64,000 bases of DNA. It comes from Brevundimonas sp. (GTDB lineage Bacteria > Pseudomonadota > Alphaproteobacteria > Caulobacterales > Caulobacteraceae). The stretch's first letter is position 1, and each line of letters opens with the position of its first letter. Location of the stretch: the NCBI RefSeq assembly GCF_035626535.1, contig NZ_DASPNO010000053.1:12994-76993 (forward strand). The letters run 5' to 3'. The notes under the pieces were generated by a model. The model was not told the origin of the DNA. It saw only the letters and a program-made list of their open reading frames with translations, and made no database searches. Below, piece after piece: positions 20-3,531 of the stretch. The translations under genes were made by a program, and so were the position numbers.

Positions 20-529
20 ATGGAAACTGCTGAGGCGTTCTTCTTCTGGGTTGGGGTGATTGAATTCGTAGTTCTAGCCGTCGGCGTGATCTATGGACTA
101 TTCCTGTGGGGATCAGGTATTGCGCCAATTCTGTATCGCTTGGGTAATGGCCTAGCGCATCGGAAGATCGCAATCTTCGCGTCAGGCGACAATCTCACAA
201 GCCTGCGTCAGCTCCTCGTGGAGTCGAAGCTTTTCAGGGAAAAGAACCTACTTATCATTCCTTCGATCCGAGAGATTGACGACTCTGAAGGGGCCTCCGT
301 TTTTCTCATGTATTGGCCAGACTGGAACGCGCACCTCGATGAGGTCATGAGGCGCAAAGGACCGAAATGCGCGTTGGTTGTGTATCAACCGTACGACCAA
401 GGCCGGATTCCGGACGAGCAGATGGCGCAACTCGATGGTCGGCGGCACAGCTCAGTTACGAATTTCCGCGGCCGCCTTTTGAACGACCTCGTCACTTCGA
501 TCATGACCACCAGCTATGCGAAGGAATGA
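20..529 (+). CDS. Putative CBASS membrane effector (N-terminal TM plus alpha/beta domain); may extend 5' of the window
   Basis: Hydrophobic FFFWVGVIEFVVLAVGVIYGLFLWG segment; overlaps the CD-NTase start by 14 nt; no in-frame stop between position 2 and the ATG at 20. Confidence 0.6.
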   Translation: METAEAFFFWVGVIEFVVLAVGVIYGLFLWGSGIAPILYRLGNGLAHRKIAIFASGDNLTSLRQLLVESKLFREKNLLIIPSIREIDDSEGASVFLMYWPDWNAHLDEVMRRKGPKCALVVYQPYDQGRIPDEQMAQLDGRRHSSVTNFRGRLLNDLVTSIMTTSYAKE

Positions 530-1841
530 GGTGAATGCGCTTCTGCGCCGATATGCGCAGGAGCACCTATCCCCGACAGAGAACGAGCGACAGTTTGTAA
601 CCCGCGTCTATACGTCGGTTCGGGATGTGCTCGGAGAGGCGAACTGCCTGCAGATCGGCTCATATCCAAGGTACACGGCCATCACGCCGCTCCACGATCT
701 CGACGTTCTATACGTCTTGGGCGCTTGGGACCCGATCGCTCATGATCCTTCTGAAGCGTTACGCCAACTCGAAGCGAGGCTCCGCGCCGAGTACGTGAAT
801 CCAACGGATTTCGAACTTCAGATCGCGCGCCAAACCCACTCTGTGACGCTTCGCTTCTTGGAGAACGGGGAAGAGAAGTTTGGCGTCGATATAGTGCCGG
901 CCTACTCCTCCGAAATGAATGAGTTTGGGACGGACATGTACGTCGTTCCCGAAATCGCCGTTCGTTCTCATCGCGAGCGGCGGCAGATCGTCGAACAGGT
1001 ATCTCGCGGCGAAAAAGCGATGACCTGGATCAAGTCCGATCCGCGGGGGTATATCGCTGTTGCCTCAGCCATAAACCAAGCAAACGAGGACTTCCGAAAA
1101 GCGGTGAAGATCGCAAAAGGTTGGCGATCAGCTTGCAAGAGGGCAGACCCTGATTTCGCGTTGAAGTCTTTCCACCTTGAACAGGCAATCACCCGGTCAT
1201 TCGTTGCCAATCCAGACATTGATATTTTCGGTGCTGTCTTTGAATTCTTTCGAGCGCTGCCGGACTTGGTTCGCTATCCGCAGATCCCCGACAGAGCCGA
1301 TCCCGAGCGAAATATCGATGCGTACGTAGCGGACCTTAGTCATGCGGACCGGACAAAAATCATTCGCTCCCGGGACGCCTTCCTCATCAAGCTTGAGGAA
1401 CTGAGCAACTCGGATGCAGCGATGGAGGACCTCCTGTCGGCAGGAGAGCGTCATCGTGCGAGTCAGACCGAGGCCTATCTCTTCGACTCTGGCATTCCGA
1501 TGCTAACCGAAGTGGAGTTCTCGATAACCGCCACCGCACTGGAGCGCGCAGGCAGCTTCCGACGGATGATCTTGGACCGGATTGGCCGCATTGGTACTGA
1601 CCGAAAGATCGAGTTCCGCCTCGGTGCCGATGCACCCCCTGCAGACGTATACAAGTGGAAGGTCAAGAATGACGACGCCAGTCCCGAGCCCCGAGGCGAG
1701 ATAACGGATCATCGAACACATCAGGACCCGGAAAACACGAAGTACAACGGAACCCATTATGTGGAGTGCTTTGCTATCCGCGATGGCGTTTGCATCGGGC
1801 GGTCCCGTCAGAACGTGGTGTTGCAATGGGGTCAGGGTTAG
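516..1841 (+). CDS. cGAS/DncV-like nucleotidyltransferase (CD-NTase, SMODS) with C-terminal AGS-C domain
   Basis: GSYPRYTAITPLHDLDVL (GS...DxD), VDIVPA, SDPRGY, LKSFHLE; C-terminal YKWKVKN...RGEI...ENTKYNGTHYVECF typical of AGS-C. Confidence 0.88.
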   Translation: MRRNEVNALLRRYAQEHLSPTENERQFVTRVYTSVRDVLGEANCLQIGSYPRYTAITPLHDLDVLYVLGAWDPIAHDPSEALRQLEARLRAEYVNPTDFELQIARQTHSVTLRFLENGEEKFGVDIVPAYSSEMNEFGTDMYVVPEIAVRSHRERRQIVEQVSRGEKAMTWIKSDPRGYIAVASAINQANEDFRKAVKIAKGWRSACKRADPDFALKSFHLEQAITRSFVANPDIDIFGAVFEFFRALPDLVRYPQIPDRADPERNIDAYVADLSHADRTKIIRSRDAFLIKLEELSNSDAAMEDLLSAGERHRASQTEAYLFDSGIPMLTEVEFSITATALERAGSFRRMILDRIGRIGTDRKIEFRLGADAPPADVYKWKVKNDDASPEPRGEITDHRTHQDPENTKYNGTHYVECFAIRDGVCIGRSRQNVVLQWGQG

Positions 1842-3531
1842 CCACGAGTTGCCGGTTGCTAGGACGTCTACCCTGAACCACCACCCGGCAGTCTGATCCG
1901 GGGACGTCAGGGACTTCGGGGACGTTGATTACGTCTATTACGTCGTCCTTAAAGCGCACACACACGCTTCGTAGAAGACGCACGAACTCGTCTCGCTTCG
2001 GCATCTCTTCGATGGCCCGCACCAGTGCGCAATGTGACGTGTTTCGATCCTCGTCCCAGTCCGCCAGCAGACTGGGACAGGCGTTCATTTTCGCCACCTC
2101 CACGAACGGTGGCGCGGCCTGAATGCTGAGTTTTTTGTCCATCAGGGTGGGGTTCGATCCCACCAATTTCAGGATCATCCGCTTTTCGTCCGCGTCGGCG
2201 CGCGAAAACCAATCCGCGGCCTGATTGCTGGCCCGCAGCAGATCGCGCAGGGGTTCGATCCCCAATCCCCCTGACCGGGCGCTTTCCAGCCGCGCGGCGA
2301 TCTCGCCGCGCTCCGTCTCGAGACGGCCACGCTGCGCCTTGAACTCGGCCTCCGTCAGTTGTCCCCTAAGCATCAGGGTGGTGAGCGCATCGGCCTGCCG
2401 GTCGACATCGCGCAACGACGCTTCCAGCGTGGTTCGGTGCGCGGCGTTCAGCCGCGCCATCTCCTGCTCCTGCCGGACGAACTGCTCGATCATCCACTCG
2501 TGCAGACCCGGCTCCAACTGCAGGGTGCGCAGGAACTCGAGGATCTGGTTGTCGAGGGCCTTGGCCTCGACGGACGGTTCCGGGCAGCGGTCGTCGAGCT
2601 TGCGGCGGGCGCAGTGATAATAGAGGTAGCGGCGCGCCCGCTTCTGCTTGCGTTCGGCGGTGATGGCGCGCCCGCAGCGGCCGCAGCGGATCAGGCCGCG
2701 ATAGGGCACCTCCAGCGTCGGCGGCATGGACACCGTCCGGCGCAGCGCCACCTGCAGTCGTTCGAAGGTCCCGAGCTGCACGGCCGGCGGATGCTTGCCG
2801 GGCCAGGTGCGGCCGTTCCAGACGATGACGCCGGCGTAGAAGGGATCGGTGAGGATGCGGTGGGCGGTGCTGTCCGGCAGCGGCACGCCCGGCTTGCCGT
2901 GCGCGGGCGGGGTGATGAAGCCCCAGTCGTCGCGGGCGATGCGCGCTGCCGCGTGGATGCTGCAGCTGCGATGGGCGACCAGACGGAACAGGCCCTTGAT
3001 CAGCGGGAAATAGGTCGGGTCGGCGACGATGGTGCGGCTGGCGCGGTCGTTGCGATAGCCGAGCGGCGCGCGATTGGGCCGCCAGCCGTTCTCCAGCTTG
3101 GTGCGGTTGCCGCGTTTGACGTTTTCGGAGAGGGCGTCGGAATAGTATTTCGACTGGCCGAACATGATCTGCAGCATGAACTTGCCCTGCGAGTTGTTCT
3201 CGAAGGTGTAGGTCGAGAATTTCAGGTCCTTCAGCACGCCACGATCGAGCAGGTAGACCAGCCGGCCTCCGTCGATGGAGTTGCGCGCTAGACGGTCGGG
3301 GGCCCAGGTGGCGATGCCCTGCGCCTCGCCCGCTTCGATGCGCGCGACCATGGCGTCGAAACGAGGCCGGCCCGGCGTCATGGCGCTCCGAGACTCCTCG
3401 ATGATCTCCACCACCTCGACCCCCGGCGAGGTGTTCAGAAGTCGCTCCAGCTCGCGGCGCTGGGATTCGATGGACAACACCTGACGATCCTCGGCCTCCG
3501 AGGATTTCCGGCAGTAGAGAAAGTATTTCAT
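1774..3531 (-). CDS. Large serine recombinase (resolvase + recombinase + zinc ribbon + coiled coil)
   Basis: True start inferred at ATG 3531: MKYFLYCRKSSEAEDRQ (YxRxS), DRLARN, RCGRC...YYHC...C zinc ribbon. Confidence 0.9.
   Translation of the reverse strand: MKYFLYCRKSSEAEDRQVLSIESQRRELERLLNTSPGVEVVEIIEESRSAMTPGRPRFDAMVARIEAGEAQGIATWAPDRLARNSIDGGRLVYLLDRGVLKDLKFSTYTFENNSQGKFMLQIMFGQSKYYSDALSENVKRGNRTKLENGWRPNRAPLGYRNDRASRTIVADPTYFPLIKGLFRLVAHRSCSIHAAARIARDDWGFITPPAHGKPGVPLPDSTAHRILTDPFYAGVIVWNGRTWPGKHPPAVQLGTFERLQVALRRTVSMPPTLEVPYRGLIRCGRCGRAITAERKQKRARRYLYYHCARRKLDDRCPEPSVEAKALDNQILEFLRTLQLEPGLHEWMIEQFVRQEQEMARLNAAHRTTLEASLRDVDRQADALTTLMLRGQLTEAEFKAQRGRLETERGEIAARLESARSGGLGIEPLRDLLRASNQAADWFSRADADEKRMILKLVGSNPTLMDKKLSIQAAPPFVEVAKMNACPSLLADWDEDRNTSHCALVRAIEEMPKRDEFVRLLRSVCVRFKDDVIDVINVPEVPDVPGSDCRVVVQGRRPSNRQLVANPDPIATPRSDGTARCKRHRG
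1901..1946 (+). repeat. 9-bp period direct repeats (GGGACGTCA-like)
   Basis: gggacgtca/gggacttcg/gggacgttg followed by degenerate ttacgtcta/ttacgtcgt. Confidence 0.7.

Follow-up and report, generated by a model that had tools for sequence, protein, structure and literature searches.

Membrane proteins constitute the largest class of CBASS effectors, and one category among them, designated '1TM', stems from the CBASS classification of Millman et al. (2020), as that classification is quoted in later papers; the class itself is defined bioinformatically only. In type III CRISPR systems, cluster 59 of Shah et al. (2018), or C3a59, with Nos7107_2826 as its representative, is listed as a 'trans-membrane' accessory of types III-A, III-B and III-D. 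A further entry, Cam2 (CRISPR-associated membrane protein 2), was described from 26 type III CRISPR loci as a protein with an N-terminal transmembrane (TM) helical part and a C-terminal REC-like domain, for which cA3 binding and membrane perturbation were predicted (Hoikkala et al., 2024, NAR); the description of Cam2 is confined to type III CRISPR loci and makes no mention of CBASS. The union of a small TM module with a cytoplasmic cyclic-nucleotide sensor is also found in Cam1, Csx23 and Cap1 from type III CRISPR and in Cap15 from CBASS, which depolarise or disrupt the membrane upon ligand binding. Our literature search found no paper with an experimental characterisation of the 1TM/C3a59/Cam2-like family, nor any that equates 1TM, C3a59 and Cam2 or reports the pairing of this family with CdnC operons.

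In this work, we analysed a stretch of 64,000 nucleotides from Brevundimonas sp. (hereafter, the window), in which a preliminary description, made from the sequence alone, had placed an unfamiliar and possibly new effector in a CBASS operon. Our results indicate that the protein does not represent a novel type of effector but an additional member of a known, bioinformatically defined family, and since defence-annotation tools already call the gene, it carries no weight as the discovery of a new effector. The useful outcome lies in the link between systems, by which three separate catalogue entries are connected (CBASS 1TM, CRISPR C3a59 and probably Cam2), and in the hypothesis of cA3 signalling that derives from the pairing of the family with a CdnC-HORMA-TRIP13 operon.

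The effector gene and its cyclase partner

The operon comprises the following features:

20..529, plus strand: effector gene encoding 169 aa, a member of the CBASS '1TM' / type III CRISPR 'C3a59' family (open reading frame; PADLOC models PDLC00664 and PDLC01057; 443 homologues)
516..1841, plus strand: CD-NTase gene encoding 441 aa, with catalytic residues G48-S49, D61-x-D63 and D125 (PADLOC Cyclase PDLC00785, Pfam, motifs)
1506..1820, plus strand: AGS-C (Ig-like) C-terminal domain of the CD-NTase, residues 331-435 (Pfam PF18134, E=2.9e-14)

The window starts inside contig C53 (G000:C53) of an assembly of 2.74 Mb in 93 contigs, and the reading frame had been regarded as possibly extending beyond the window edge. 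In the upstream sequence of the same contig, an in-frame TGA is located at -49..-47, and no ATG, GTG or TTG lies between it and the ATG at position 20. Since this ATG is therefore the first start after an upstream stop, the protein is complete and the suspected longer N-terminus can be discarded. Its length agrees with that of the family (165-175 aa) and with the coverage of the PADLOC profile.

Based on sequence profiles, the effector almost certainly belongs to the catalogued CBASS '1TM' family, and this family is one and the same as the C3a59 accessory of type III CRISPR. The PADLOC model PDLC00664 ('Effector 1TM') matched the protein over practically its full length, with residues 5-168 aligned to positions 10-173 of 174 (E=4.4e-54, 181 bits), and model PDLC01057 ('C3a59 - trans-membrane') was matched over positions 13-167 of 167 (E=1.9e-44). 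So confident an assignment to an established effector family refutes, by the standard that the preliminary description itself had set, the unfamiliarity which it assigned to the protein. The third and last of the PADLOC models matched, more weakly, was Mem_04, a type III CRISPR membrane protein (E=8.5e-7), and the models for patatin, TIR-STING, Cap4, Cap15 and SLATT were unmatched, as were CARF and SAVED models in PADLOC and Pfam. The annotation of Mem_04 in PADLOC as a protein that 'could be a diverged CARF' is a guess of its annotators. Further, neither Pfam nor NCBIfam returned a match to the 169-aa protein (in Pfam, none at E<=1), and the sole match of a sequence-profile search against the PDB was a designed TIM-barrel repeat, which is spurious. 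The family comprises 443 homologues at E<=1e-3, which without exception bear the name 'hypothetical' and nearly all measure 165-175 aa; among 1.8 billion representatives it accounts for 236 clusters at the 50% identity level. Therefore, the open reading frame is not due to chance.

The adjoining CD-NTase is intact and matched PADLOC Cyclase PDLC00785 with E=3.5e-191. Its score against Pfam SMODS (24.2 bits) is slightly below the 26.5-bit cut-off, and its best PDB sequence matches, CdnC and CdnD, are weak (E~1e-6). The AGS-C domain at its C-terminus is an Ig-like domain which modulates phage specificity in type I CBASS. As had been noticed before, the effector gene overlaps the start of the CD-NTase gene, by 14 nt if translation begins at ATG 516; an alternative start is the in-frame GTG 531, located 5 nt after a Shine-Dalgarno-like AAGGA and 1 nt after the effector stop. 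In homologous loci the overlap is mostly 7-10 nt. The overlap makes translational coupling of the two genes probable. Neither Cap2/Cap3 nor HORMA/TRIP13 genes were found next to the pair, the upstream side being occupied by a non-coding recombinase remnant and the downstream side by a convergent serine recombinase. The best explanation of positions 20..1841 is that they probably form a minimal two-gene type I CBASS operon with anti-phage function, and the placement of the protein in the effector slot of such an operon was thus upheld. Upstream of the operon we found no convincing promoter, a consensus scan giving no more matches than shuffled sequences, and a terminator scan was uninformative.

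Membrane segment, soluble domain and conserved residues

Within the effector, four segments were delimited:

35..133, plus strand: single hydrophobic TM segment, residues ~6-38 (Kyte-Doolittle hydropathy, AF2 helix 2-47, alignments)
116..163, plus strand: juxtamembrane linker G33-x2-P36-x3-R40-L-G42-x-G44-L, 94-100% conserved across the family
164..514, plus strand: cytoplasmic REC/flavodoxin-like alpha/beta domain of five beta/alpha units, presumed nucleotide sensor (AF2, Foldseek)
461..487, plus strand: signature of the family, N148-F-R-G-R-L-L-N-D156, where beta5 meets alpha5; conservation is 98-99% whether the members are linked to CBASS or to CRISPR

The preliminary description of one N-terminal TM segment followed by a flavodoxin-like alpha/beta domain agrees with hydropathy, AlphaFold and Foldseek results. 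No second hydrophobic stretch was detected in the Kyte-Doolittle profile, and the segment is flanked by an acidic N-terminus (METAEA) and by basic residues on the far side (R40, H47, R48, K49), which predicts an N-out/C-in topology with the globular domain in the cytoplasm. In the alignments, residue 15, inside the TM segment, is a conserved polar position (E/D/S/T). The AlphaFold monomer of the full-length protein (pLDDT 86.9) displays a long helix spanning residues 2-47 and then the five beta/alpha units, and the soluble domain modelled alone, also as a monomer, reached a pLDDT of 89 and a pTM of 0.85. The top Foldseek matches of the full-length model were GPCR fusion constructs, an artefact of the long helix, and hence the soluble domain was used instead.

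Against the PDB, the soluble domain matched receiver domains (TM 0.57-0.66, rmsd 3.2-4 A over ~120 residues) and the N-glycosidases MilB and DNPH1 (TM 0.60-0.64), with a best E of 2.5e-3, these being generic flavodoxin-like folds; against viral structures, generic REC and deoxyribosyltransferase folds were the only ones recovered. CARF, SAVED, TIR and STING folds were absent from the top 50. The preliminary description had been unable to assign the protein to patatin, SAVED, STING-TIR, Cap4, Cap15 or SLATT, and this is confirmed by the lack of any such PADLOC or Pfam match and by the position of those folds outside the Foldseek top 50. REC/CheY-like receivers constitute the best structural class for the domain. 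Nevertheless, a canonical receiver was ruled out, since the protein has no match to PF00072, the equivalent of the phospho-acceptor (D101) is N, E, A or S in other clades, and N-F-R-G-R stands in place of the beta5 Lys; furthermore, the gene has no kinase partner.

The linker from G33 to its final L, N76, W99, Y122, P124, R142 and the N148-D156 block are kept at 91-100% in all genomic contexts, and the NFRGRLLND motif is invariant across CBASS-linked and CRISPR-linked alignments. This motif had been noted beforehand as the end of the protein; it is indeed present and close to the C-terminus, but it occupies residues 148-156 of 169. In the model, the conserved residues of the soluble domain are located at or just after the C-terminal strand ends, the usual ligand face of such folds, and their richness in arginine and aromatic side chains is what would be expected of a nucleotide site. 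R142, N76 and N148-FRGRLLND156 thus likely make up the predicted phosphate- and base-binding site, with R142, R150, R152, F149 and N148 as named candidate binding residues.

The resemblance to MilB and DNPH1 raises the alternative that the alpha/beta domain is a membrane-tethered enzyme, for example a nucleotide N-glycosidase of that kind, with the TM segment as a mere anchor. Both proteins are among the best Foldseek matches and nucleosidase effectors are known in CBASS; yet, with 11-13% identity, they do not surpass the receiver domains as matches, sequence searches of Pfam and the PDB gave no true match, and the juxtamembrane linker and the polar TM position are strictly conserved, which speaks for coupling to the membrane segment. 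A natural variant argues in the same direction: in protein P0249, of 276 aa (L085), a TIR-like enzyme domain stands in place of the TM helix, which suggests that the N-terminal part of the family is an output module. We therefore regard the enzyme alternative as quite improbable, and retain a sensor domain coupled to a membrane segment as the preferred architecture.

P0249 is encoded on a 1-kb metagenomic contig. Its TIR-like/DNPH1-like N-terminal domain matched the PADLOC CBASS model 'Effector TIR' (E=4.8e-7) and its C-terminal domain is the NFRGRLLND domain of the effector family, a layout which, for this one protein on its short contig, suggests a C-terminal sensor module and an N-terminal output. 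Two other proteins with a sensor domain devoid of a TM segment, P0251 (joined to a reverse-transcriptase fragment) and P0254 (joined to an EF-Ts-like UBA segment), are probably chimeras of gene calling or assembly, and were not used as evidence.

Compared with the described systems, the effector shows no family difference from the CBASS 1TM class, with which it shares the full-length profile match, the single TM segment and the adjoining CD-NTase. The likeness to C3a59 includes the profile match and the presence of six homologous loci in type III operons, the difference being that the copy in the window belongs to a CBASS operon and not to a type III CRISPR-cas cassette. The TM part, the REC-like fold and the CRISPR linkage of homologues correspond to the published description of Cam2, and by that description the family is likely Cam2. 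The same logic proposed here is that of Cam1, Csx23, Cap1 and Cap15; however, their sensors (CARF, ubiquitin-like/PB1-like, CARF-like and beta-barrel) and their numbers of TM segments differ from those of the effector, and none of the four was matched in sequence or fold by PDB sequence-profile and Foldseek searches.

Genomic contexts, candidate ligand and proposed mechanism

The neighbourhoods of 80 effector-homologue loci (numbered with the prefix L) were surveyed in GTDB genomes. By iterated HMM and PADLOC searches, a strong linkage to CD-NTases of several clades was found, with a CD-NTase gene on the same strand in 63 of them, directly downstream of the effector in 50 of these 63, with a gap of mostly -13 to +26 nt. 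A weaker linkage, as indicated by tblastn with the window cyclase (42 of 80), was rejected: the cyclases that this search missed are divergent proteins of short or middle length, including the 255-aa PDLC00803 type and the PDLC00823 type. In 7 loci the cyclase is located ~1.5 kb upstream of the effector; the one that was checked (L064) is a full type III CBASS, and the assignment of the other 6 is inferred from spacing. Another 6 of the 80 loci lie inside type III CRISPR operons (L029, L035, L042, L045, L075 and L080), where the neighbours are Cmr6 (L029, L035, L080), Csm3 (L042, L045) or, directly after the effector gene of L075, a Cas10 with HD and GGDD motifs; CARF-RelE is also among the neighbours of CRISPR-linked loci. 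Three of the 80 are on truncated contigs, and the remaining 8, mostly from Ktedonobacteria/Thermogemmatispora, have no signal generator (cyclase or cas genes) within 5 kb. These orphan loci (L026, L033, L039, L050, L053-L055 and L061) group in one clade together with CRISPR-linked members, and in L026 and L053 the next downstream gene has a weak match to DUF1648, under the Pfam cut-off.

In a maximum likelihood tree of 81 effectors these contexts are interleaved, with at least three origins of CRISPR linkage and at least four of the type III CBASS-like arrangement, which indicates that the effector is a module repeatedly exchanged among generators of cyclic oligonucleotides. The clade of the window, with 27 effectors, was found with type I-like cyclases only (short 255-aa, mid-length and AGS-C), without CdnC or CRISPR. 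In the metagenome-assembled genome of a Methanosarcinales archaeon (L080), a family member directly follows cmr6 in a type III-B operon. This archaeal effector is 59.5% identical to that of the bacterial locus L071, which is paired with another AGS-C cyclase, thus indicating exchange of the effector between domains.

The nature of the ligand can be approached through these pairings. In L064 (Maricaulis), the effector closes an operon with the order cyclase-bacHORMA_1-TRIP13, in which the 1TM protein occupies the slot of NucC, and the cyclase is a close homologue (E=6.4e-133) of CdnC from E. coli MS115-1. The latter enzyme reportedly makes cA3, which activates NucC. Between the effectors of L064 and L074 the identity is 77.5%, the L074 effector being paired with an AGS-C cyclase 61% identical to that of the window, and the window effector is 52% identical to the type III-B CRISPR-linked effector of L029; type III CRISPR systems signal with cA3-cA6. 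On the basis of the CdnC pairing, of the L064/L074, L071/L080 and L029 identities and of the type III CRISPR signals, we tentatively favour cA3 or a cA3-like molecule as the ligand, and the CdnC pairing points to cA3 independently of the prediction made for Cam2. Given that the clade of the window is seen with type I-like cyclases only, the argument reaches this clade only by transitivity.

For this reason, the alternative that specificity diversified on the same scaffold, with a cyclic dinucleotide (cGAMP or of cUA type) as the ligand in the clade of the window, has to be weighed. It would fit the cyclases of this clade, as well as the identity of only 40-41% between the window effector and those of L064 (CdnC-linked) and L075 (CRISPR-linked). 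Fusions with AGS-C are known from clades B, H, F and G of the CD-NTases, and several of these clades make dinucleotides. Conversely, the presumed binding motif (R142, NFRGRLLND and N76) does not vary with context, the CRISPR-linked L029 effector is 52% identical to that of the window, and near-identical effectors switch between CdnC and AGS-C cyclases. A dinucleotide ligand consequently appears doubtful, and cA3 or a relative of it is kept as the preferred candidate.

By analogy with Cam1, Csx23, Cap1 and Cap15, we consider it probable that the protein is a signal-activated membrane effector, whose predicted role is probably to sense a cyclic oligonucleotide and to damage the membrane so as to stop the phage; ligand binding, the oligomeric state and membrane activity are here inferred. 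In the mechanism that we propose, phage infection would activate the AGS-C CD-NTase, whose product would most likely be cA3 or a closely related trinucleotide. This molecule would bind the cytoplasmic domain where R142 and N148-F-R-G-R152 form a face at the strand ends, and the linker G-x2-P-x3-RLG-x-GL, which is invariant, would relay the binding to the TM helices of an oligomer, with the polar residue 15 in the membrane. The oligomer would then permeabilise or depolarise the inner membrane, and the infection would be aborted.

A cyclase paired with a TM effector could also work in the opposite sense, as a guard in which the constitutive product of the cyclase keeps the effector off until phage sponges or nucleases deplete the signal and release it. 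Two-gene operons of cyclase and TM effector with such logic exist in Panoptes of types I and II, the latter having a cA3-controlled CARF-TM effector; but the Panoptes cyclase is mCpol, not a CD-NTase, the family studied here also occurs in operons of type III CRISPR and of CBASS under HORMA/TRIP13 control, which produce their signal upon infection only, and operons with AGS-C CD-NTases behave as conventional inducible defence. Such a guard is hence very improbable for this operon, and activation by a signal made upon infection is the reading that we pursue.

As a broader and more novel possibility, somewhat less likely than not, the REC-like domain with its R...NFRGRLLND residues might represent a third kind of receptor for cyclic tri-adenylate, independent of CARF and SAVED, which type I CBASS, type III CBASS and type III CRISPR would share because the gene has been exchanged repeatedly; in that case, the partnered AGS-C CD-NTases, including that of the window, would synthesise cA3 and thereby drive a trimeric, single-pass pore gated by the ligand. 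With its 169 aa, the effector is a tractable protein in which a receiver-type fold could be shown to sense a cyclic oligonucleotide and to gate a single-pass TM assembly.

The mobile setting of the cassette

The operon is accompanied by elements indicative of mobility:

1774..3531, minus strand: large serine recombinase of 585 aa, from MKYFLYCRK, convergent to the operon and marking the end of a mobile island (Pfam Resolvase, Recombinase, Zn_ribbon_recom)
1897..2068, no strand assigned: downstream copy of a 172-bp direct repeat which brackets the cassette, 86% identical to the upstream copy (blastn, alignment)
-328..-157, outside the window (L002 12665-12836), no strand assigned: upstream copy of the 172-bp direct repeat (blastn, alignment)

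The 172-bp repeat is the antisense of the 3' end of the serine recombinase gene; thus, its upstream copy is what remains of a gene for a related recombinase. The GC content of the cassette is 53-58%, against 61-75% in the surrounding sequence, and the best explanation for the CBASS operon is that of low-GC cargo carried by a mobile island, at the end where the recombinase lies. The same 2.1-kb cassette, corresponding to window positions -24..2068, was found with 91% nucleotide identity in a metagenome-assembled genome of Brevundimonas sp. (L003 4957-7057), whose flanks differ from those of the window beyond these limits and include a large AAA-type ATPase open reading frame downstream. The family was found in 2 of 41 related genomes, as expected of a mobile defence gene.

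This setting bears on whether the cassette may be a decaying remnant which is no longer functional. In the L003 copy, with an effector 92% identical to that of the window, the CD-NTase frame is interrupted and its first ~67 codons are separated from the rest; a recombinase-gene remnant flanks the cassette, and, as mentioned, a promoter was not detected. Against decay, neither gene of the operon is disrupted, and none of the conserved and catalytic residues is missing, which renders this alternative extremely improbable and leaves a functional defence operon as the preferred reading.

Two minor observations may be added. A genome of the same genus carries an effector paralogue or xenologue, 42% identical (L084; G003:C1:1742673-1743170). 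The 172-bp repeat, for its part, contains 9-bp periodic GGGACGTCA-like units which, on the minus strand, encode a peptide repeat of DV(I/P) type.
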